Notes: generated by a model from the sequence alone, not told the origin. 64,000 bases of DNA from Oscillospiraceae bacterium (GCA_015067725.1 SVLX01000008.1:954-64953), one strand, 5' to 3'. Positions 2,042 through 14,400 are shown, counted from the stretch's first letter. A program made the numbers and translations.

Positions 2042-3205
2042 TCACAAAATCTCCTTGGCGAAGCTCTTACCCGGGCAGGTGTAGGAAATGCCCAGAAGCT
2101 CTGCTACGGTGGCGGCAATGTCGGCAAAACTGGCTCTGGTGCTCAGATTCACCGGCTTGACCTTCTTTCCGCCAATGAGCAGGGGTACATATTCTCTGGT
2201 GTGGTCGGTGGTGGCAGAGTATGCCGGGTCGCAACCGTGGTCGGCAGTAATCATGACCAAATCCTCCTCCCCCAGCTTCTCCATGAAGCCGGGCAACCAG
2301 GCATCAAATTCATTGAGGGCTTTGGCATAGCCGTCGATGTCCCGGCGATGACCATAGAGCATATCAAAGTCCACCAGATTCACGAAGCACAGGCCATGGA
2401 AATCCTTCTCCGCATAGCGCATGGCGTGTTCCATGCCATTGGTGTTGCTCTGGTTATAGACGTGCTCGGTTGTGCCCCGACCGGCGAAGATGTCATAAAT
2501 CTTGCCCACGCCGATGGAATCCAGCCCCGCCTCCACCAGTGCATCGAGAAGGGTCTGGGTGGGCGGCTCCAGGGAGAAGTCATGTCGGTTGGCGGTACGG
2601 GTGTACTTGCCGGAGGTCCCCACGAAGGGGCGGGCAATAACCCGGCCCACGCCATGCCTGCCCTGCAGAATCCGGCGGGCAATGCGGCAGTATGCATACA
2701 GGTCATCCAGAGGAACAACCTCCTCATGGGCGGCAATCTGGAACACGGAGTCGGCGGAGGTATAGACAATCAAATCGCCGGTGCGGACGTGCTCGTCGCC
2801 ATAGGCATCAATGACCGCTGTGCCGGACCAGGGGGCATTGGCCAATGTGCCGCGACCGGTGGCCTCCCGGAAGGGCTGCAGGACTTCCTCCGGGAATCCC
2901 TCAGGGTAGGTGGGCAGGGGGTCAGGGGAGATGAGACCGGCAATCTCCCAGTGACCAATGGTGGTGTCCTTGCCCATGGAAGCCTCCCGAAGCCGGGCAT
3001 AAGCACCGGTGGGGGCAGACTCCTTCCCCAAGCAAGTCACGCCGTCAATATTGCCCAGACCCAGTTTCCTCATGTTGGGAATGTTCAGCAGTGGGGATGT
3101 GGCGCAACTGGCCAGGGTATTGACATTGACATCGCCAAAGCTTTCGGCATCGGGCATGGCGCCAATACCGCAGGAATCCAGAACGAATAAAAAGATACGT
3201 TTCAT
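2042..3205 (-). CDS. deoB: Phosphopentomutase
   Basis: GGAGG RBS; MKRIFLFVLDSCGIGAMPDA...; TADHGCDP metal-site motif; 387 aa. Confidence 0.93.
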   Translation of the reverse strand: MKRIFLFVLDSCGIGAMPDAESFGDVNVNTLASCATSPLLNIPNMRKLGLGNIDGVTCLGKESAPTGAYARLREASMGKDTTIGHWEIAGLISPDPLPTYPEGFPEEVLQPFREATGRGTLANAPWSGTAVIDAYGDEHVRTGDLIVYTSADSVFQIAAHEEVVPLDDLYAYCRIARRILQGRHGVGRVIARPFVGTSGKYTRTANRHDFSLEPPTQTLLDALVEAGLDSIGVGKIYDIFAGRGTTEHVYNQSNTNGMEHAMRYAEKDFHGLCFVNLVDFDMLYGHRRDIDGYAKALNEFDAWLPGFMEKLGEEDLVMITADHGCDPAYSATTDHTREYVPLLIGGKKVKPVNLSTRASFADIAATVAELLGISYTCPGKSFAKEIL

Positions 3206-3260: not shown

Positions 3261-4493
3261 TTACCATACCCCATCCGGGGATTCCAGATATTGGGCATGG
3301 GGGTACAACCGGCGTAGTTGTCTTGCTCTCTCCGGGTGGTACATGACCACCAGAGCCTCCCGTTGCCAGTAAGATTGGCGGCTTAGTTTCCTCCCCCACC
3401 AGCGGAAAAAACAGCACGTTTCCCAGTCATCTATAGCAGAATATGTCGCCATAAACTTCCGGCCACCGATGCTGCGCCTCAGGTGTTTTCGTTCCCGCAG
3501 GGCAACCTCGTCCCGGCTTAAGGGTGAAACCACCAGATAGTCCGCCACAGCCCCAGCCTTCAGTCCACGCACCCGGGCAATGGTTTTGATGGCTCCGGCA
3601 GAAATCGCCTGTTTTTTTCGTTGGGATACAAAGATCCCCTCCGGCTCTGCCTGAATCTGTTCGTTTTCTTTCCGGGCAACCACATACAGGGTAAGCATCA
3701 GCACTCCCGCAGGGCAGAGTCCCAGATACCACGTCTCCGGCACAATTGCAACCAGCAGTGCCGAGAGTATGCCCATAACCACCACAACGGAAAGCAGTTC
3801 CCTCCCTATGGCAGCCTGTTTCTCTCCCCGGAAGAAAACACCGGATGTCGCTCCACCATGAGGTGACCATGACTTGTGGGTCAGCAGGGATACGGGGTGC
3901 ATATGAGGGTAGCAGTGCCGCAGTATGCAGGAATTGTCTATGGTATTCCGCAGGCAGTAAATCTTCCTGTTTCTCCCCGGAAAACCCTTCTGGCTATGGC
4001 GGTGCAGATATGTTTTGGCGAAGGTTTTCCGCCATTCCGGCTGTTGTTTCCGGGCAGAAATGGCCTCCGGGCTGAGTTTTTGCCGTTTTAGTTCCTGTGT
4101 CTGCAGCCAAATCAGTTCCTCTAAACCATATGTCGAGAGATAAAGCATGGGCAGCCCGGAAACCCGGCGGCTTGGCTGGCTTTCTGCAAGAATCAGATGT
4201 AATTGCCCCGCAGACAGCAATTCCGGTTTTCTGCCGGGTCTGCGCACCTCAATACCGTCGGGCATCAGCACCAGTTTGGTCATGCCATCATCGCAGATTA
4301 CCACAGACAGCAAAGAACCAAGCAGAAACAAGACAGCCACGCCACAAGCCCCGGCAAACGCCGACCACACCGCCGCCACCAGAAAAGTCAGCAGAAGACC
4401 GGCGCTCAGAAGAATCAGGCTTCGGTTTGGGCGGAGGCTGGGATAGTTTTTTTCCTTACGTTCATGGTATTCTTCCATTATTCTTGTTTCCAC
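3261..4493 (-). CDS. Membrane protein, paralog family member A1 (two 2TM + beta-rich modules)
   Basis: Two TM pairs; module cores MPDGIEVRRPGRKPELLSAGQLHLIL and EPEGIFVSQRKKQAISAGAIKTIARV; C-terminal RRLYPHAQYLESPDGVW shared with A2 and A3; GTG start at 4493, alternative ATG at 4478. Confidence 0.7.
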   Translation of the reverse strand: METRIMEEYHERKEKNYPSLRPNRSLILLSAGLLLTFLVAAVWSAFAGACGVAVLFLLGSLLSVVICDDGMTKLVLMPDGIEVRRPGRKPELLSAGQLHLILAESQPSRRVSGLPMLYLSTYGLEELIWLQTQELKRQKLSPEAISARKQQPEWRKTFAKTYLHRHSQKGFPGRNRKIYCLRNTIDNSCILRHCYPHMHPVSLLTHKSWSPHGGATSGVFFRGEKQAAIGRELLSVVVVMGILSALLVAIVPETWYLGLCPAGVLMLTLYVVARKENEQIQAEPEGIFVSQRKKQAISAGAIKTIARVRGLKAGAVADYLVVSPLSRDEVALRERKHLRRSIGGRKFMATYSAIDDWETCCFFRWWGRKLSRQSYWQREALVVMYHPERARQLRRLYPHAQYLESPDGVW

Positions 4494-4523
4494 TTCCCTT
4501 GATGCTCGCTTTCGTGTGGGCGG

Positions 4524-5630
4524 TCAGAATATTCCCTTCTGAGATTCCAGCCACTGGGCCTTCGGGTATAACTCCCGGAGCTGTTTCTCCTGCCCCGGCT
4601 GGTATTCTACAGCCAGCCAACGGCGACCTCGGCTACCAAAGCAATGAATCCTCCCGGAATAGTAGCGCAGGGCGCAAAGCTGCTCCCCATCAGGAAGCCG
4701 GGAATACATCCCCAGGAGCGTTTTTCCGGTCAAGCGACAACGCAACGCCTTTCTGTACCGGGTTGCGGCTTCCTCCGCCGTCAGGTCAGAGAACATCAGC
4801 ACCTGAGTCACTTCGGTACCCACCTTGACCCGGAACTTTGCCATGGTTTTGATGGACTCTGCGGGAATCAGACTTTTCTTCTTACCCCGCAGCAACCGGA
4901 TTCCCTCCAGGGCAGGCATATAGCCATAAACGCCCGGATAGAGCAACCATCCCAGCAAAACGGCCACCACACCGGCAAGCAGGAACAGCAGCAGCTTGTT
5001 CCCCAAATCTCCCAGAAACAGCACCAGACTGAATACAGCCATAGCCGTCACAAGAGCAATGTTGACGCGGGTGGAGTCACGATGGGCCATTGCGTTCTTC
5101 TTTTTCAGTTTCTGCGTTGTCTCCCCGGTCTGCTCCGGTCTGATTTGGGATATGGGTAAAGCTACCTTCTCCGGGAAGCACTGTTTCAGCACCGACACCA
5201 ATTCCTCATCCCCGGGCAGTCTGATGAAGCTCTGTCTTGCGGCTTCATGGACATTGCCAATCAACAGCGGGTACAGGTATTCTCTGGCAAAATTCATCTG
5301 CCAGTTGGGGTCCTCTTTTCGCCGGGGCAATTCCCTGGCGCTGAGAGGACTGTTTTGCAGTTCGGTTTCCCGAAGCTCCGCCAGCTCATTCAGGCTGTGG
5401 GGGCACAGGCAGAACTGGGCATTGCCCACTTCCCTGCTTCCCCAGAGATAAATGTGGAGCTGTTCTTCCCCAAGCCACAGTACCCTCCTGCCGGATCGCC
5501 ACACCGTGACCCCCTCCGGGGACAATGTCACCTCTGTAGCGGACCGCCCAGGAATCCGCAGACCCGGCGACCGGAACGGCGAGCCCGCCTTGACCAGTGG
5601 AATTCTAAATGTCGCAATTTCTTCCGTCAT
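4524..5630 (-). CDS. Membrane protein, paralog family member A2
   Basis: GGGGAGG RBS; cores SPEGVTVWRSGRRVLWLGEEQLHIYL (no TM pair before it) and ALEGIRLLRGKKKSLIPAESIKTMAKF; C-terminus RELYPKAQWLESQKGIF. Confidence 0.7.
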   Translation of the reverse strand: MTEEIATFRIPLVKAGSPFRSPGLRIPGRSATEVTLSPEGVTVWRSGRRVLWLGEEQLHIYLWGSREVGNAQFCLCPHSLNELAELRETELQNSPLSARELPRRKEDPNWQMNFAREYLYPLLIGNVHEAARQSFIRLPGDEELVSVLKQCFPEKVALPISQIRPEQTGETTQKLKKKNAMAHRDSTRVNIALVTAMAVFSLVLFLGDLGNKLLLFLLAGVVAVLLGWLLYPGVYGYMPALEGIRLLRGKKKSLIPAESIKTMAKFRVKVGTEVTQVLMFSDLTAEEAATRYRKALRCRLTGKTLLGMYSRLPDGEQLCALRYYSGRIHCFGSRGRRWLAVEYQPGQEKQLRELYPKAQWLESQKGIF

Positions 5631-5684
5631 GGTCAGTACCTCCCCGGTTTTTCTGTGTTGGTTTATGTGTTATGGGTCGTGGAG

Positions 5685-6920
5685 TCAGAACAATCCCTCC
5701 GGCCAGTCCAGCCACTGGGCGTGGGGGTACAATTCTCTCAGCAACTTCTCCCGCTCCGGGGTGTAGGCCGCCACCAACAGCTCCTGGTCGGTACCTCCGT
5801 GCCAGAGGATCCTGCGGGAGCAGTAGCACTGGGCAAGCGTTTCCGCTCCATTGGGTATTTGCGCGTACAGCCCCATCGTCCTGCGGCCGGAAGCACTTCG
5901 GCACAGGTATTGCGTCTGCCGCCGGGCAAGCTCCTCCACGGTCAGTTCTGTAAGAACGAGACTGTAGGAGAACCCGTATCTTTTTGCAATGGCAATTTTG
6001 GCAATGGTTTTGATGTTTTTCCCAGGAATCAGCCGTGGTTTTCTGCCTTCCAGCCGGATTCCCTCCGGCGTGGGACGGAATACCTGATTTTTGGGGCAAA
6101 GCAGAAATCCTGCGAACAAAACAACCAGAAATGTTCCTCCCACCACGGGCCACGGCGGCAGTCCCCACTTTATTGCCGGAAAAACAACGAGCCAAGGCAA
6201 CAGCACCGCCGCAAATACAATTGCCAAGACCCATGCCGTGCAATCACTCTCCCTGCCGCCGAGGCGCTCTTTCTCCTGCTTACAGGATGTCTGAAACACT
6301 TGGGGTGTCAATGTACCCAACTGTCGGCAAGGCATCATCGGGAAAAACCGCTGCAAGACCGATTCCATTTCCTGGGTGCAATCCAGTTCAATCAGACTCT
6401 TTTTCACCGGATCCCGCAGGCCTCTGGCCGTCCAGCGCAGGATATATTCCCTGGCAAATATGCTCTGCCACTTCGCGCTCCGCTTGCGGAAGACCAGTTC
6501 ATTGCGGCTCAGTACACTTTTTTCTATCTCTGCCTCCCGAAAAGAGGCCAGCTTCTCAAGGGTATAAGGACTGAGGCACAGACAATACCGATTGCGGCTG
6601 GTATCGCCACACAAATAGAGATTCAACTGGTCTGCCGGAATCCTAAGCCGCAGTCTGCCGAAACGGTAAAGCCGAACTTCTTCCCGGTTCAGTACCACCA
6701 TCGTACCTGCCCGACGAACCAGATATATCCCCAGCACTACATACACTGCACCAAAGGGCAAATTCAAAAGCCCCAGTATCGGCGCACCCCAAAAGAGTTC
6801 AAACACGCCGCCAACCGCAATTCCCAGTGCAATCAGAACCCCGAAACCACCAGTCAGCGTATACAACCATCGTGGCCGGTATGCCGGGCATCGAATATCC
6901 TCCGGTCTTTCTGTAATCAT
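5685..6920 (-). CDS. Membrane protein, paralog family member A3
   Basis: GGGAGAAG RBS; ATGA overlap with A4 stop; cores NREEVRLYRFGRLRLRIPADQLNLYL and TPEGIRLEGRKPRLIPGKNIKTIAKI; C-terminus RELYPHAQWLDWPEGLF. Confidence 0.7.
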   Translation of the reverse strand: MITERPEDIRCPAYRPRWLYTLTGGFGVLIALGIAVGGVFELFWGAPILGLLNLPFGAVYVVLGIYLVRRAGTMVVLNREEVRLYRFGRLRLRIPADQLNLYLCGDTSRNRYCLCLSPYTLEKLASFREAEIEKSVLSRNELVFRKRSAKWQSIFAREYILRWTARGLRDPVKKSLIELDCTQEMESVLQRFFPMMPCRQLGTLTPQVFQTSCKQEKERLGGRESDCTAWVLAIVFAAVLLPWLVVFPAIKWGLPPWPVVGGTFLVVLFAGFLLCPKNQVFRPTPEGIRLEGRKPRLIPGKNIKTIAKIAIAKRYGFSYSLVLTELTVEELARRQTQYLCRSASGRRTMGLYAQIPNGAETLAQCYCSRRILWHGGTDQELLVAAYTPEREKLLRELYPHAQWLDWPEGLF

Positions 6921-7558
6921 GCTTCTTCTCCCTCTGCTGTGCAGTTCTGTGCATTGTTCAAATAGGGCAGTATGGCCTGCAGGAGATCATGGTCATAGCC
7001 CATCAGAATATCCTGCTCCAATCCGAGGAGCAACCGTGTCATTCGGCGTTCAATCCGCACCTGACTCCAGGAGAATATATTGTCCAGTGCCATACCCTGG
7101 CTGAGGATGCTCCGTCTGGCTGAGGGTTTTCTGGCCAGAATCCGCCGTCCCTCCTCCTCAATGTTCCTTCTGGTGCTGGTGGACAGCAACACAAGGCCCT
7201 CATAGGTCGGATTACCCCGGCCAAAGCCAATCTCCCCGTAGCATACAGTCCGGATTGATCTGACCGGTCTGCGGCAAAGTACAACAGGCCCAAGGCACAC
7301 CCTGAGTTCCATCCGGTCCAGTTCAATTCGCTCCAGACAGAACAGTGCCATTGCTGCACCCACCAAAAAGAACCAGATAAAGCCACCGAAAATCAGCCCA
7401 ATAAAGGGCCAAACCTGCCAGGGCACTCCGCTGTAGTCTACCGACACAAGCTGTACCAGAACAAAGGCAGGTAGCCCGCAGAATGCCAGCCCATGAAACC
7501 GCAGCATTCTCTGCGCCCCGGCTCTGGGGACAGATATGCCCCGCTCCATCGTTTTCAT
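6917..7558 (-). CDS. Membrane protein, paralog family member A4 (single module)
   Basis: GGAGGG RBS; one TM pair followed by RIELDRMELRVCLGPVVLCRRPVRSIRTV. Confidence 0.6.
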   Translation of the reverse strand: MKTMERGISVPRAGAQRMLRFHGLAFCGLPAFVLVQLVSVDYSGVPWQVWPFIGLIFGGFIWFFLVGAAMALFCLERIELDRMELRVCLGPVVLCRRPVRSIRTVCYGEIGFGRGNPTYEGLVLLSTSTRRNIEEEGRRILARKPSARRSILSQGMALDNIFSWSQVRIERRMTRLLLGLEQDILMGYDHDLLQAILPYLNNAQNCTAEGEEA

Positions 7559-7627
7559 CCATATCCCTCCTCAGGCAAAAAGGGGCGGCAATTCAGCCGC
7601 CCCCATCTTACGATTCTTCCTCCGGGT

Positions 7628-8260
7628 CTAGTCCCGGATTATCTCCACCTGTTGGAACGCCTTGAGCAGCATGGCCTCACGGCTTTTTGTATAATCCATC
7701 CAGATAAAGTCTCCTCCTGTGCGATACCGGCGGCGAACCTGTCGGGCGGCATAGTCCAGTAAAAACCGCTTTCTCATTACCGGTGACAACTGACCATAAG
7801 TCAGCCCACTGGGATTCAGGGGACTCCGGTTCTGGATATCCAGTTCCTTTTGAATCAGCATCTGGGGCGATAGCAGTCCAATGCCCAGCATATCGTTACG
7901 ACGGCGTCGCACACCGGGGCAGTAAACAATAACCTGCACCTGACTGCGTGGTATGCACTGCAGTTCCCGTTTACCCCGGCAGACCCGCAACCCCCGGCAG
8001 TCCAGGGTGATGGTGTCCATCTCATAGCGGATTTCCAAGCAGAGCCATAGTAGTGCTGCAACCAGTAGCGGGATAATCAGCCATCCCAGCCCTTCACACA
8101 CACGCCTATCCATTGTTCTTCCCAAGTTTATGGCAATCCACGCACACGTCAGTACAGCAACAACCAGCAACAGCGCAGGGGATTTGCTCCGCCGAATACG
8201 GAACTGGTATTCCTCAATTGCAATATCTTTACGGAAGCGAGGGATTCCCGACTCAGGCAT
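7628..8260 (-). CDS. Membrane protein, paralog family member A5 (single module)
   Basis: One TM pair followed by ITLDCRGLRVCRGKRELQCIPRSQVQVIV; ATG lies inside the last codons of deoD (8-nt overlap). Confidence 0.6.
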   Translation of the reverse strand: MPESGIPRFRKDIAIEEYQFRIRRSKSPALLLVVAVLTCAWIAINLGRTMDRRVCEGLGWLIIPLLVAALLWLCLEIRYEMDTITLDCRGLRVCRGKRELQCIPRSQVQVIVYCPGVRRRRNDMLGIGLLSPQMLIQKELDIQNRSPLNPSGLTYGQLSPVMRKRFLLDYAARQVRRRYRTGGDFIWMDYTKSREAMLLKAFQQVEIIRD

Positions 8261-8999
8261 TTTCCATCTTCACGGCCACTTCCAGCGCCACCTTCATCAT
8301 GGTGGTGAAGGAATTCTGCCGCTGCTCGGAGGTGGTCTCCTCACCGGTCAGCACATGGTCAGAAATGGTGCAGATGCACAGGCCACGCTTGCCATAGCGG
8401 GCGGCGTTCATGTACAGGGCGGCGGCCTCCATCTCCAGCGCCATAACGCCCATCTTCTGCAGACCATAGAGAGAGTCCAAACCCTCAGGGACACCAATGT
8501 GGTCGCCATAGAAGACATCAGAGGAATTCACATTGCCCACATGGTAAACGGCACCGGCTTCCCGGGCCGCCTCAACCGCAGCCTCCAGAAGCGCATAGGA
8601 GGCAATGGGGGCGAAAGTGCCGGGCAGATGGAACTGCTTGGCCCAGGCAGAGTCGGTGCAGGCACCCTGAGCAATGACCAGGTCATAGAGATGGATGTGC
8701 TCCTGAATGGCACCGGCAGAGCCCACACGGATGATGTTCTCCACGCCATAGCCATTGAACAGCTCATGGGAGTAAATGCCAATGGCGGGCATACCCATGC
8801 CAGAGGCCATGACAGAGACCTTAACGCCCTTATAATAGCCGGTATAACCCTGAACACCACGGACATTGTTCACCAGAACCGGGTTCTCCAGGAAGTTCTC
8901 CGCAATAAACTTAGAGCGCAGAGGGTCACCGGGCATCAGCACAGTCTTACCAAAATCGCCGGGTTTGGCGGAAATGTGGGGGGTAGGGGTTTTCAGCAT
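8253..8999 (-). CDS. deoD: Purine nucleoside phosphorylase, DeoD type
   Basis: AAGGAG RBS; PHISAKPGDFGKTVLMPGDPLRSKFIAENFL...NNVRG...YKG..VSVMASGMGMP is close to my recollection of E. coli DeoD. Confidence 0.9.
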   Translation of the reverse strand: MLKTPTPHISAKPGDFGKTVLMPGDPLRSKFIAENFLENPVLVNNVRGVQGYTGYYKGVKVSVMASGMGMPAIGIYSHELFNGYGVENIIRVGSAGAIQEHIHLYDLVIAQGACTDSAWAKQFHLPGTFAPIASYALLEAAVEAAREAGAVYHVGNVNSSDVFYGDHIGVPEGLDSLYGLQKMGVMALEMEAAALYMNAARYGKRGLCICTISDHVLTGEETTSEQRQNSFTTMMKVALEVAVKMENA

Positions 9000-9016: not shown

Positions 9017-9388
9017 TTACAATTTGATTGTCGTTCCAAGGATTTGTTGTACTTCAGCATGGATAACATCACAAATCCCAGGAAAATTCTCCATAATATC
9101 GTTGTTACAAAATCTCAAAACCTTTATGTGGTGCAAATTTAAGCGTGCCGTTCTTTCCTCGTCTTTTATCATCGCATCGGGCTCATAGTGGCCGCTACCA
9201 TCCAGCTCAATTGCAAGACGGGCAGAAGCACAGTAAAAGTCCACAATATAGGAATCAATGGGCTTTTGCCGCTGAAACCGGACTGGATATGTCCGCAGAA
9301 ACTGATACCAGAGTTTTCGCTCCCACGGCGTCATATCTTTACGCAATCGCTTCGCTAACGACACATTTCTTCGGTCATAATACTGCAC
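9017..9388 (-). CDS. DUF559 (Vsr-like endonuclease fold) domain protein
   Basis: GTG start after GAGGTGAG; LRKDMTPWERKLWYQFLR...FQRQKPIDSYIVDFYC...LAIELDGSGH...D..R is the DUF559 signature; visibly AT-richer than its neighbours. Confidence 0.85.
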   Translation of the reverse strand: MQYYDRRNVSLAKRLRKDMTPWERKLWYQFLRTYPVRFQRQKPIDSYIVDFYCASARLAIELDGSGHYEPDAMIKDEERTARLNLHHIKVLRFCNNDIMENFPGICDVIHAEVQQILGTTIKL

Positions 9389-9650: not shown

Positions 9651-10337
9651 TCAATAACTGCCATCATTCCTGGCTTCCTGTCCCTGTTCCATGGCTTTGG
9701 CCAGCTTCACGATTCTGGATGTACCCAGACGGTCAGCGCCCAGTTGGATAAACTTCTCCGCGTCAGCCAGACTGGAGATGCCGCCGGCGGCCTTAATCTT
9801 CACCTGCGGGCCAACGTACTTGGCGAACAGCTCCACATCGCTGAAAGTCGCGCCGCCGGTGGAGAAGCCGGTGGAGGTCTTGATGTAGTCTGCCCCTGCC
9901 TCGGTGACACAGTGGCACATGGCAATCTTTTCCTCATCCGTCAGCAGACAGGTCTCAATGATGACCTTCAGAATCTTCCCGCCGCAGGCCTCCTTAATGG
10001 CCCGGATTTCGGCGGTAATCTCGTCCCACTTCTTGTCCTTAATCCAGCCCAGATTGGCCACCATGTCCACCTCGTCCGCACCATTGGCCACTGCGTCGGC
10101 AGTCATGAATACCTTGGCGGCGGTGGTGGCGTAACCATTGGGGAATCCAATGACGGTGCAGATGGCCAGCTTGCCCTCCACATAGTCGCTGGCCTGCTTG
10201 ACGTAGGCAGCGGGAATGCAGACGGAGGCAGTGGCATACTTCATGCCGTCGTCACAGATGGCCCGGATGTCTGCCCAGGTGGCGGTCTGTGCCAGCAGGG
10301 TGTGGTCGCATTTGCTCAGAATGGTTTTCAGTTCCAT
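9651..10337 (-). CDS. deoC: Deoxyribose-phosphate aldolase
   Basis: AAGGAGAG RBS; CDHTLL...ASVCI...VIGFPNG...VKVIIET..L...IKTSTGF...KAAGGI; 228 aa. Confidence 0.93.
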
Positions 10338-10399: not shown

Positions 10400-11020
10400 T
10401 TATGTATCAAGCTCACTGGGCGCGCCGTGGAGCTTAATTTTCTTCCGCTCCCGGATACCCCGAATCCAGCACTTGTGGCACATGGCAATGTAGCTGTCAT
10501 TGCCGCCCAGCATAAGCTGCGCGCCCTCGGTGACGATATAGCCCTCAGCGTCAATCCGGGCATTGACCGTAGCCTTGGCCCCGCAGTCGCAGATGGTCTT
10601 AATCTCCTGAATGGTGTCCGCCACCTCCATAAGCCGCCGGCTGCCGCCAAAGAGATGACACTGGAAGTCTGTGCGCAGACCGAAGCACATCACCGGCAGA
10701 TTGTGCTCGTCCACAATCGCCCTGAGCTGGTCAATCTGCTCCGGCAACATAAACTGGCACTCGTCCACGATAATCACATCGCACTGCCCCAACCGGGTGC
10801 GGCGAAACAACTCCAGCACATCGCACTCCGGCGGAATAATCTCCACCTGCGCCTGCAGACCAATGCGACTGCGGAGAATCTGCCGGCCGTCTCTGGTGTC
10901 GGCGCTGGGCTTCACAAGCCAGACCTTCAGGTCGTTTTCCTCATAGTTGTACTTGGTAATCAGCGCCTGCGCCGTCTTGGATGACCCCATTGCGCCATAC
11001 TTGAAATACAGTTTTGCCAT
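10400..11020 (-). CDS. tdk: Thymidine kinase
   Basis: Internal ATG at 11020 with GGAGGG RBS gives MAKLYFKYGAMGSSKTAQAL (P-loop at the N-terminus); C-terminal zinc ligands CDCG...CHKCW. The 276-aa track ORF is an upstream extension. Confidence 0.9.
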   Translation of the reverse strand: MAKLYFKYGAMGSSKTAQALITKYNYEENDLKVWLVKPSADTRDGRQILRSRIGLQAQVEIIPPECDVLELFRRTRLGQCDVIIVDECQFMLPEQIDQLRAIVDEHNLPVMCFGLRTDFQCHLFGGSRRLMEVADTIQEIKTICDCGAKATVNARIDAEGYIVTEGAQLMLGGNDSYIAMCHKCWIRGIRERKKIKLHGAPSELDT

Positions 11021-11495: not shown

Positions 11496-14400
11496 CTACC
11501 GGGCATCGCTGGCGGCTTTCAACAGCCGGATGTTCTGCAGTTCAAAGTCATTGAACACGGACTCATCAAAGTCTTCCGGCTCGATGGTGCCATGATACCA
11601 GGAACAGCCATCAAAATACTCCTGAATCTCCGGTGTTCTGAATTTCCGACCATGGCGGGCATAAATCTCATTGCGCGCCAGAATCAACTCCCAGAGAGAG
11701 AGGTCAATGTAATCCGCTTTGGACAGGTATCGGCTGTCGCTGTCCGGGAAGAAGTATCCGCTGTCCTGGTCTGCGCCGGATTCCTTGTCCCGCTTCTCCC
11801 CTTCTTCCTTGAGAATCCGGATGTTCTCCAGCTCATAGCGGTTGAAGACGGATGAATCAAAATCCTCCGGTTCAATGGTGCCATTGTACCAGGAGAGGGA
11901 GTCAAAATACGCCTGAATCTCCGGGATGGCAAAGCGGCGACCATGGCGGGCAAAAATCTCATTCCGGGCCAAAATCAGTTCCCAGTCGTCCAAGTGCTGA
12001 TAGTCCTCCTGGGTCAGAAACCGCTTGTCACTGTCGGCAATTAGTTGTTCCGGGTCCTGGTCGGTGTTCTGCTCTTTCCGGGCATCGCCTGCGGCCTTCA
12101 AGATTCTGATGTTCTCCCGCTCATACTTGTTGAGGACGGAGATGTCAAAATCCTCCGGATCAATCGTACCTTCGTACCAGGGACAGCTATCGAAGTAAGC
12201 CTGAATCTCCGGGGTAGCAAAGCGGCGACCGTGGCGGGCGAAAATCTCGTTCCGGGCCAAAACCAGCTCCCAATCCGTCAAATCCTGATAATCTGCCTCG
12301 GTCAGATACCGTTTGTCGGCATCGTGGAAGAAGTAGTCTTCGGGATTGATTTCCACCGGAGGATCGGTGGGTTCCGGCTCGGTGGGTTTAGGCTCTGTAG
12401 GCTTGGGCTCGGTAGGCTGAGGCTCCGTAGGCTTAGGCTCTGTGGGTTTGGGCTCCGTAGGCTTAGGCTCTGTGGGTTTGGGGTCCGTCGGCTTGGGATC
12501 CGTTGGCTTGGGATCCGTTGGCTTGGGAACCGTTGGCTTGGGATCCGTGGGCTGAGACGGGTCGTTGTCATCCGGTCGGCTCTCCCCGGGAGATTGTCCA
12601 TTGGGATCAGTCTCCTCAGTGGAGTCCGTCTCCCCGGTGGAATCGGTGGTATCTGTAGAATCCGTGGAGTCAGTGGTATCGGTAGAATCCGTGGAATCCG
12701 TCTGGTCGGTGGATTCGGTGGGGTCCGTCTGGTCAGTATTGTCCGTGGGGACGATAAATCCGCCCTGATGCTCCGTATCGCCGGTATTTCCGGTGTCTCC
12801 GGTGGCATCGGAGGACTCCGTCTGTCCGGGATTGCCGGTAAACCAACTGCCATAGGACAGCACCACGCCGCCCAGAATACCCAACACAAACGCCAGTGCC
12901 ACACCCAAAGCCAAAATCATCAGCTTCTGCCCGGTGGTCGCCATCATGGGTCTCCTGCGGCGGAGGGCGGTAGCGGTGGCGGCGGTGGTCTCCGCAGCCT
13001 TATCGGATGTAGTCTTTCCTGCGCCGGGGTCAACCGGCACACCACCGATTATGGGCATACCCCGGCTTCGTCCGGTTGCGGCATACTCGGGTGTCTTTTG
13101 TCCGGGTGGCTTCTGAGATTCCGACCCGGCGGGTTTTTCGGTATGCTTCTCCGGCGTCTTTTTCTCTGGAGTTTTCTTTTCCGGTGTCTTTTTGTCCTGC
13201 GACTTCTGTTCGGACGTCTTTTTGTCCTGCGTCCTGCGGTCCGCGGACTTCTTCTCCGGTGGGTCAGGCGGCTTTACGCTCCCGCCACCCGCAACCGAAG
13301 AACCGGTTTTGCCCGGTGTGGGTGGAGTTGTCGGGGATTGGGCAGTCTTTCTTCTGTCCCGCTTTCCGGCAAAGCCCAATCCCAAACCCAGACCCACGCC
13401 TGCACCCACAGCGGCCGCGGCGGCGGCATTGTCCTTTTCCTTTGGTGGAGGGGGGTATTCCGGGTAAGTGGGGGGCGACTGCGTTTCGGTTGTTCCGGTT
13501 GTGGCGGCAGAAGTTCCGGACTTCCGGTCCGCACCGGCGGCAGGCACCTCTTTCTGGGGCTTTCCGGCTGTTTCTTCCGCAAGCTGTGCCAGAAGCTCCT
13601 CCGGAATCTCAACTTCCGGCGCTTCGCTCCAGCCATCGGGGACAGTTTTGACGGGGGCAGAGACAACTGCATCCGGCGTTTTCTCCGGCGCATCGGTCTG
13701 ACTTTCGTCATCGGGAATCAATGTGGACAAATCCACAGTGGAGAAATCAAATACAGGGTCATCTTCTTCAGGCTTGGGCTCAGCAGGTCTGCCACCGGTG
13801 GGCATACCCAAATCCAGGAAGCCAGTCCCGGCAGATACTTTCCGGGCATCGCTACCTCTGGCATCACCGGCTGTACCGTGACTCCCACCGGCAGACCACT
13901 GGGTGGATTTGGCCTCCAGGAAGTCCTGCACCGGCGAACCCACAATGGGTCGGGCAGTCTCCGGGGTTGTTTCTCTCGGGGTGGCGGAGGCCCGTCTTCT
14001 GGTGGGTCGCTCCCCGGTGCTACGACTGTAGCTCCGGTCTTCGGCGGGCTTTGCCGTACCGGGCATTTCGGGGAATTCAAAGTCCTGTCTTCTTGCTCTG
14101 GCAGTTTCCTCCGTGGGGAAGGCAAAGGACAGAGGCTTTTTCTCCGAATGGGCATCGTCAGAAAAACCGAAGTTCTGCCCATGACGGACGGCCCGCTCTG
14201 CCGCCAGAGGGTCACGCCCAGTGGCGCGCTGTCTGGCAGATCCGGTATTACCCGAACCAAAGGCAGGCTCAGCCGGTGCGGTACTCTGGCTGGTTGTGCG
14301 TCGCTCGCCGTGGCTTGTCCCTCTGTCGGTTTTTCTTCCGGAAACCTCCGGGAATTCCGGCTCACCGGTATCCACGGCAAAGGGGTCAAACCCACGCCCG

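Follow-up and report, generated by a model that had tools for sequence, protein, structure and literature searches.

What are five adjacent, nameless genes doing between two enzymes of nucleoside catabolism? This question is raised by a 64,000-nt stretch of DNA (GCA_015067725.1 SVLX01000008.1:954-64953; hereafter the window, with all coordinates counted from its first letter) from Oscillospiraceae bacterium, an uncultured gut Oscillospiraceae-type bacterium. On the minus strand of the window, the genes that we call A1 to A5 fill the interval between deoD (8253-8999, minus strand; purine nucleoside phosphorylase, Pfam PNP_UDP_1 match) at the upstream border and deoB (2042-3205, minus strand; phosphopentomutase, Pfam Metalloenzyme match) at the downstream border. 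Our answer, to which we attach a probability of roughly 60%, is that A1-A5 are real, intact members of an unannotated, genus-restricted family with a putative strain-variable envelope or conflict function, which occupies a permissive slot in the deo operon.

The five open reading frames (ORFs) all lie on the minus strand. A5 (7628-8260; 210 aa) follows deoD and encodes one module, made up of an N-terminal strand, two transmembrane (TM) helices (residues 27-49 and 52-80) and a basic cytoplasmic domain. The next gene, A4 (6917-7558; 213 aa), encodes one divergent module. The remaining three genes each encode two modules: A3 (5685-6920; 411 aa; N-module ~6288-6920, C-module ~5688-6287), A2 (4524-5630; 368 aa), whose N-module (5121-5630) lacks the TM hairpin and is acidic (isoelectric point, pI, 5.3), and A1 (3261-4493; 410 aa; N-module 3858-4493, C-module 3264-3857), which begins with GTG. 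An alternative ATG start of A1 five codons 3' of the GTG (window 4479-4493) would give 405 aa, and the gene caller picked the equivalent of this later ATG in the orthologue of the metagenomic strain L006. The ATG of A5 lies 8 nt inside deoD, overlapping its last codons, the A4 stop and A3 start overlap as ATGA, and the remaining gaps across the array and its flanks measure 69, 54, 30 and 55 nt. The GC content of the five genes (0.53-0.57) is similar to that of the flanking genes. A preliminary description of the locus had given the ORFs a host-like GC and some of them as tightly linked, and every factual statement that it made on their sizes, spacing and coordinates agreed with our ORF list.

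Sequence comparison indicates that A1-A5 comprise eight copies of one homologous module, in which a two-helix membrane hairpin is followed by a basic cytoplasmic domain of ~135 aa; only A4 is a weak member. A1, A2 and A3 are clear paralogs with 28-33% identity (BLASTP E 1e-30 to 1e-53). BLAST missed the internal repeat and the short proteins, and profiles detected both. The N- and C-modules of six long proteins aligned over 132 collinear columns (hhalign probability 97%, E 8.6e-11), while the A5 type aligned with the N-modules at a probability of 95.8% and with the C-modules at 94.7%. A MAFFT alignment of 20 modules was collinear from the hairpin through the C-terminal YP..W motif. A4 alone reached E 1.8e-3 against the A5 type. 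When the profile was built from 177 modules of long proteins alone, A4 scored 15.5 bits (single-target E 4e-7), with the match placed after TM2 as expected, and counterparts of A4 with 34-42% identity occupy the same slot in other species. The long proteins also share the tail LR(E/R)LYP(H/K)AQ(W/Y)L. According to hydropathy and the AlphaFold2 models, the TM hairpin precedes seven of the eight modules; it has been lost from the A2 N-module, which has no hydrophobic hairpin. The preliminary description, which had proposed eight copies of one module, the loss of a TM pair from A2 and a tail common to the three long proteins, was thus right on each point.

When 5.8 billion proteins were searched by word index, near-identical strains were all that came up; it took an exhaustive profile search to reveal the family. 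A hidden Markov model (HMM) of the soluble-domain alignment recovered 204 representatives (clusters at 50% identity) at E <= 1e-3, of which 129 were also found at E <= 1e-10. Almost all were either ~200 aa long, corresponding to one module, or 340-450 aa, corresponding to two. Scans against Pfam, NCBIfam, PADLOC and PHROGs assigned no family to A1-A5 or to 40 further members. The representatives were without a name in any source, and cluster look-ups returned neither names nor accessions. In PADLOC-DB 2.0, A1-A5 had no match at E <= 0.1.

The modules had been likened to the two-TM plus bPH_2 architecture of the YdbS/YdbT type. The bPH_2 class includes YdbS/YdbT of Bacillus subtilis and the DdE/DdF, LnqC/D and Orf7/8 proteins of leaderless-bacteriocin loci. 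Of this likeness, the architecture held and the pleckstrin homology (PH)-like fold received weak support from the models described below, while membership of PF03703 (bPH_2) did not stand. The PF03703 HMM (gathering score 22 bits) gave no match at E <= 1 in A1-A5 and none in 40 members; it also found nothing in the six-frame translation of the genome (G000), whereas control genomes matched. When three family alignments were compared with 15 bPH_2 proteins of the same order using hhalign, the probability was 0.2-0.4% (E 0.17-0.36), against E 0.54 for a reversed control. With no HMM match and profile-profile probabilities below 1%, we rejected bPH_2 membership. Only two sequence matches appeared below threshold, both at the expected region of the module. 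One was bPH_11 (PF25362) on the A2 strands at 28-58 (E 0.008, 16 bits, or 14.4 in the genome scan, versus a 27-bit cut-off), which matched one of 40 other members (E 0.085). At 14-16 bits against 27, we did not accept membership of bPH_11 either. The other was the STM3941 family (NF041635) on A5 residues 30-139 (E 0.16, 11.9 bits versus a cut-off of 40).

The proteins are anchored in the membrane with both termini inside. The loop between the TM helices is just 4-13 residues, and the topology is therefore N-in/C-in, with a cytoplasmic domain and almost nothing exposed outside. The cytoplasmic domains are strongly basic (pI 9.6-10.3) and contain cysteines. An AlphaFold2 model of A5, built with the 20-module alignment, had a predicted local distance difference test score (pLDDT) of 74.7 and a predicted template modelling score (pTM) of 0.61. 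In this model, a strand at 18-22 precedes the TM helices at 27-49 and 52-80, five strands follow between 82 and 128, and after these come helices at 132-145 and 160-176, a strand at 185-189, a helix at 192-201 and a final strand. The A3 model was weaker (pLDDT 66.5), with the same order of elements in both halves. The positions most conserved in the family were P (97%), Y (80%), L, W, G, P and EL. No catalytic pattern was found among the conserved positions, and the domain is therefore read as a binding or scaffolding part rather than an enzyme. Among orthologues, the N-terminal tail and TM1 evolved fastest, and the helical segment and C-terminal strand-helix slowest.

The PH-like superfold is a seven-stranded antiparallel β-sandwich capped by a C-terminal helix. 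Our models contain five strands and a helix, with more strands before TM1 and near the C-terminus. Foldseek searches of the PDB with the A5 and A3 models gave no match at E <= 1e-3, the best values being 0.026 and 0.0015, respectively. Nevertheless, the top 50 matches of both models belonged almost exclusively to the PH superfold: FERM F3 domains, phosphotyrosine-binding (PTB) domains (those of ICAP1, Numb and Dab1), classical PH domains and double PH domains. About 52 residues superposed at 2.2-2.7 Å, with probabilities up to 0.97. The best matches of A3 were the double PH domains of Pob3, SSRP1 and Spt16, with Pob3 at E 1.5e-3 and a probability of 0.95. These weak but consistent matches suggest that the core of the module is PH-like. 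A search against viral structures returned nothing, and PDB sequence searches with two profiles produced only chance TM matches (for example, cytochrome oxidase subunit 2, E 0.06). On the proposed bPH_2 identity, the sequence tests all spoke against membership; Foldseek gave matches of PH type that did not reach significance.

Profile searches place the family in one genus, to which it appears restricted. It was present in 24 of 401 species sampled from the genus of the window, and no credible match came from outside the genus when 400 genomes, representing 30 families of the same order, were searched. One congeneric metagenome-assembled genome, labelled Oscillospiraceae bacterium, came from dairy-cattle cecum. 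All eight modules of the window's genome sit in the deoD-deoB locus, and a pattern scan of the genome contigs likewise revealed a single locus.

The operon ancestral to the genus runs tdk-deoC-deoD-deoB-cdd, in most cases with bmp next. In the window, unlike in most congeners, cdd and bmp do not lie 3' of deoB. In all nine family-negative congeners that we inspected, deoD and deoB adjoin. Of the other 23 positive species, 19 have family genes exactly between the two, frequently overlapping deoD or deoB or separated from them by a few bases. We denote one-module genes as S and two-module genes as NC. The slot holds one S gene in ~11 species, one NC gene in ~5, an S and an NC gene in G146 and G160, and two NC genes in G118; overall, S genes without NC occur in ~11 species and NC genes without S in ~6, and S occurs beside NC in the window, L001, G146 and G160. 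In L001, the closest relative with an assembly, whose DeoD is 96% identical to that of the window, the slot contains S, NC and NC together with a GNAT acetyltransferase gene, which lies between the last family gene and deoB (L001 11299-11763); a Y1-transposase-like gene is found 3' of deoB in the same locus (13162-13644). L006 has three NC genes. The five genes of the window are the maximum in a range of 0 to 5. The preliminary description had called the array a lineage-specific expansion and had suggested that copy number might differ at the deoD-deoB loci of relatives; it does, since relatives carry 0-3 genes and the window five.

The occupancy of the slot changes readily. On a DeoB tree, which represents a single gene in 33 genomes from a sample chosen partly by the feature itself, the distribution of the family requires nine or more changes and shows no more clustering than shuffled labels do. 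Sisters can disagree, as with G049 (negative) and G118 (positive). In L006, A5 and A4 are gone, and the first codons of A5 (ATGCCTGAGCTGGG) and a conserved hairpin remain after deoD as a clean deletion scar (L006 50-135). The deoD-deoB gaps of family-negative congeners hold small inserts (L027 10827-10973, L029 10584-10718 and L024 2099-2166). Two of these, with folding energies of -62 and -69 kcal/mol, are long palindromes resembling miniature inverted-repeat transposable elements (MITEs; TGTCATTGCGA...TCGCAATGACA); the third is a terminator-like hairpin. The deoD-deoB junction serves as a landing site in general. In four species, a two-module gene is found outside the slot. In G317 (L071 5807-6508 and 6552-7649), such a gene is convergent to a methylthioadenosine/S-adenosylhomocysteine (MTA/SAH)-nucleosidase-like gene of the PNP_UDP_1 family, a neighbour that may be coincidental.

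The genes themselves also evolve fast. Between the window and L001, the ratio of nonsynonymous to synonymous substitution rates (dN/dS) was 0.29-0.38 for A5, A3 and A1 (0.28-0.38 for the family genes), versus 0.04-0.09 for tdk, deoC, deoD and deoB, and the dN of the family genes was 5-15 times that of their deo-operon neighbours. As the ratio lies above that of the neighbours yet below 1, the genes are constrained but fast-evolving. In the comparison with L006, dS was 0.16-0.22 for A1 and A2, 0.89 for A3 and 0.58 for the start of deoB, and nucleotide identity rose from 48-79% to 85-96% at ~5870-6020, inside A3. This jump in identity, together with the differing dS values, implies that the array is a recombination mosaic, with one recombination breakpoint, relative to L006, located inside A3.

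When 216 modules were placed in a tree, the N- and C-modules separated cleanly (4 and 6 changes), the S modules grouped with the N-modules, and A2 was sister to A3. The tandem gene duplications therefore came after the two-module architecture was in place, and the N/C split likewise predates the species. A direct-repeat scan of the window found no long nucleotide repeats and no recent gene conversion among the paralogs, which are old, with at most 74% nucleotide identity over 76 nt. The family holds a fixed slot in which gain, loss, duplication and recombination are rapid, and its protein sequence changes faster than those of the neighbouring genes.

A coherent picture can be proposed from these features. 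Each unit consists of an N-in/C-in hairpin and a basic domain (pI about 10) that is predicted to fold as a PH-like β-sandwich capped by a helix, and the helical segment and strand-helix would extend this domain up to the near-invariant YP..W. The deoD-deoB junction acts as a permissive slot in which genes are gained, lost, duplicated in tandem and exchanged by recombination through the conserved flanks. The array of the window arose from old duplications, with A2 derived from an A3-like gene. At the inner face of the membrane, the proteins may assemble into homo- or hetero-oligomers, and by analogy with YdbS/YdbT and DdE/DdF, they may protect against or handle membrane-active peptides. The array would then serve an envelope or conflict function that varies between strains and uses the deo operon for its expression, and would not provide a step in nucleoside catabolism. 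The PH-like fold, the oligomeric membrane assembly and the envelope or conflict role are the inferred parts of this picture, the last by analogy with the YdbS/YdbT class.

Several observations weigh against this interpretation. The PH-like fold comes from models of medium confidence with no Foldseek match at E <= 1e-3. No bacteriocin, toxin or phage-defence gene was linked to the slot, and PADLOC and PHROGs returned nothing. S and NC genes occur independently of each other in other species, whereas YdbS and YdbT form an obligate pair. With a dN/dS near 0.3, purifying selection is relaxed, and positive selection is not demonstrated. Finally, the constant position of the genes and the start and stop codons that, in many species, they share by overlap with deoD and deoB could instead mean a real link to nucleoside metabolism.

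In the window, tdk (10400-11020, minus strand) and deoC (9651-10337, minus strand), both assigned by Pfam, form the part of the operon upstream of deoD, and an inverted repeat 3' of deoB (1899-1949, assigned to neither strand; 19 bp, 95% complementary) likely marks its end. The overlapping start and stop codons favour co-transcription of the array with the deo genes, as the preliminary description had suggested. Between A5 and A4 (7581-7604, minus strand), a strong, GC-rich, terminator-like hairpin of nine pairs (GGGGGCGGC-TGAATT-GCCGCCCC) is followed by TTTTT and lies directly 5' of the GGAGG ribosome-binding site of A4; the surrounding stretch 7555-7630 has a folding energy of -28.6 kcal/mol. 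The same hairpin occurs 3' of R5 in L001, and 3' of deoD and the A5 remnant in L006, and is thus conserved in three strains. It may act as a terminator or attenuator ahead of A4-A1 and deoB, or stabilise the upstream mRNA. This conserved hairpin after A5 makes simple co-transcription with the deo genes uncertain. A promoter scan found no convincing internal promoter, and scans with Rfam and for inverted repeats turned up neither a riboswitch nor an invertible promoter.

The main rival explanation is that the A proteins are accessories of nucleoside salvage. They might hold DeoD and DeoB at the membrane or regulate them there, or they might modulate the Bmp-type nucleoside ABC importer that most congeners encode 3' of the operon. 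Such a role would explain why the genes keep the same position in the deo operon in 19 species and two further strains, why they lie on the same strand, often with overlaps of 4-8 nt or gaps of a few bases to deoD or deoB (L083, L087, L089 and the window), and why their translation is coupled and their GC host-like. We nevertheless consider it unlikely. The family is absent from ~94% of the sampled congeners with an intact operon, and two-module genes are also found away from any deo gene, once on a mobilisable element. Neither Pfam scans nor the conserved positions revealed a nucleoside- or nucleotide-binding signature. A salvage accessory would also have to accommodate a dN 5-15 times that of the deo enzymes and a copy number that ranges from 1 to 5.

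A DUF559 (Vsr-like endonuclease) gene identified by Pfam (window 9017-9388, minus strand) is inserted between deoC and deoD, and is the sole copy in the assembly. Its product weakly matches the DpdF and mREase nuclease domains of PADLOC-DB 2.0. Further DUF559 genes were located at L022 12039-12356, L072 8440-8808 and L073 6509-6877. DUF559 adjoins the slot in L001 and G076 and directly precedes a two-module family gene in G271 and G142, both outside the slot; the G142 pair stands beside a Mob_Pre relaxase and a large serine recombinase, i.e., on a mobilisable element. The DUF559 gene is a possible fellow traveller of the family, and the A genes might be mainly mobile or selfish cargo that moves with it into permissive intergenic sites, in which case the array would result as a by-product from repeated insertion and duplication. 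The MITE-like palindromes and other small inserts in the gap of negative congeners fit this proposal, which we regard as quite improbable, since 14 other positive operons lack DUF559 within 10-17 kb, no repeats or recombinase flank the window array, and the paralogs are old and under purifying selection. Those 14 loci weaken any general link to DUF559. As a separate observation, four eukaryote-like repeat proteins of 890-1300 aa (P0128, P0140, P0143 and P0153) match only the C-terminal strand-helix of the module (LL..Y....LL..lYPhypW), 6-9 times each, and end in a DUF559/Vsr-like nuclease domain; this repeat is covered by no Pfam family.

Two explanations carry still less weight. The proteins might be membrane-disrupting abortive-infection effectors that, like Cap15 or PycTM, combine two TM helices with a ligand-binding β domain and respond to a nucleotide-derived trigger. 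A two-TM hairpin with a small β-rich cytoplasmic domain, a patchy distribution and fast evolution speak for this. However, the operon consists of tdk, deoC, DUF559, deoD and deoB, with no cyclase or sensor partner, at least 20 related loci also lack a cyclase link, PADLOC found no match, and the Foldseek matches are of PH type and not Cap15-like barrels, which makes this explanation very improbable. The idea that the ORFs are decaying or non-functional remnants, suggested by the lost hairpin of A2 and the strong divergence of A4, was rejected as having next to no likelihood, given the intact frames (no frameshifts or stops in the five window genes or in six genes of two other strains), the dN/dS well below 1, and the presence of ribosome-binding sites and coupled starts.

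Returning to the reading of A1-A5 as intact members of a variable envelope or conflict family, the locus does not represent a novel kind of system. Bacteria commonly have membrane-anchored PH-like proteins, which are almost uncharacterised, and the few tested examples handle bacteriocins. A more speculative extension, which we put forward as doubtful, is that the family may exemplify a broader and so far unrecognised class of gut and rumen Clostridia: hypervariable arrays of two-TM plus PH-like proteins, housed in housekeeping operons, that would confer strain-specific immunity to or exclusion of membrane-active peptides or phages and diversify by duplication and by cassettes exchanged via the conserved genes on either side. 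In practical terms, the slot offers a natural series of 0, 1, 2, 3 and 5 genes between two conserved enzymes, with recombination visible between strains, and is therefore well suited to studies of the role of such arrays and the causes of their diversification. The ~200 sequence clusters of this unannotated family could also receive a domain model.

Among characterised proteins, comparison is best made with YdbS/YdbT and DdE/DdF. YdbST protect against amylocyclicin (PMC8144471), and DdE and DdF are needed for the export of enterocin DD14 (PMC8657885). YdbS has two TM helices and one PH domain, and YdbT has six TM helices and three PH domains (PMC8657885). The present family differs from these in several respects. 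Neither HMM nor profile-profile comparison revealed a relationship; the module is longer (~200 versus ~150 aa) and carries an additional helical and strand-helix stretch that ends in YP..W; the long proteins have two modules, in contrast to the three of YdbT; S and NC genes are not obligately paired; and the genomic setting is a nucleoside operon instead of a sigma-W or bacteriocin locus. The likeness to the PH superfold (PTB, FERM F3 and the double PH domains of FACT) extends to ~50 residues at 2.2-2.7 Å with probabilities of 0.9-0.97; these matches are eukaryotic soluble domains with E above 1e-3 and low TM-scores, and show no evolutionary link. What the family has in common with YdbS/YdbT and DdE/DdF is the two-TM hairpin before each β-rich PH-type domain and, in the window as with YdbS/YdbT, the adjacent encoding of one-module and multi-module proteins. 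The YdbS/YdbT class consists of accessory envelope proteins, and by analogy, the same may hold for A1-A5.

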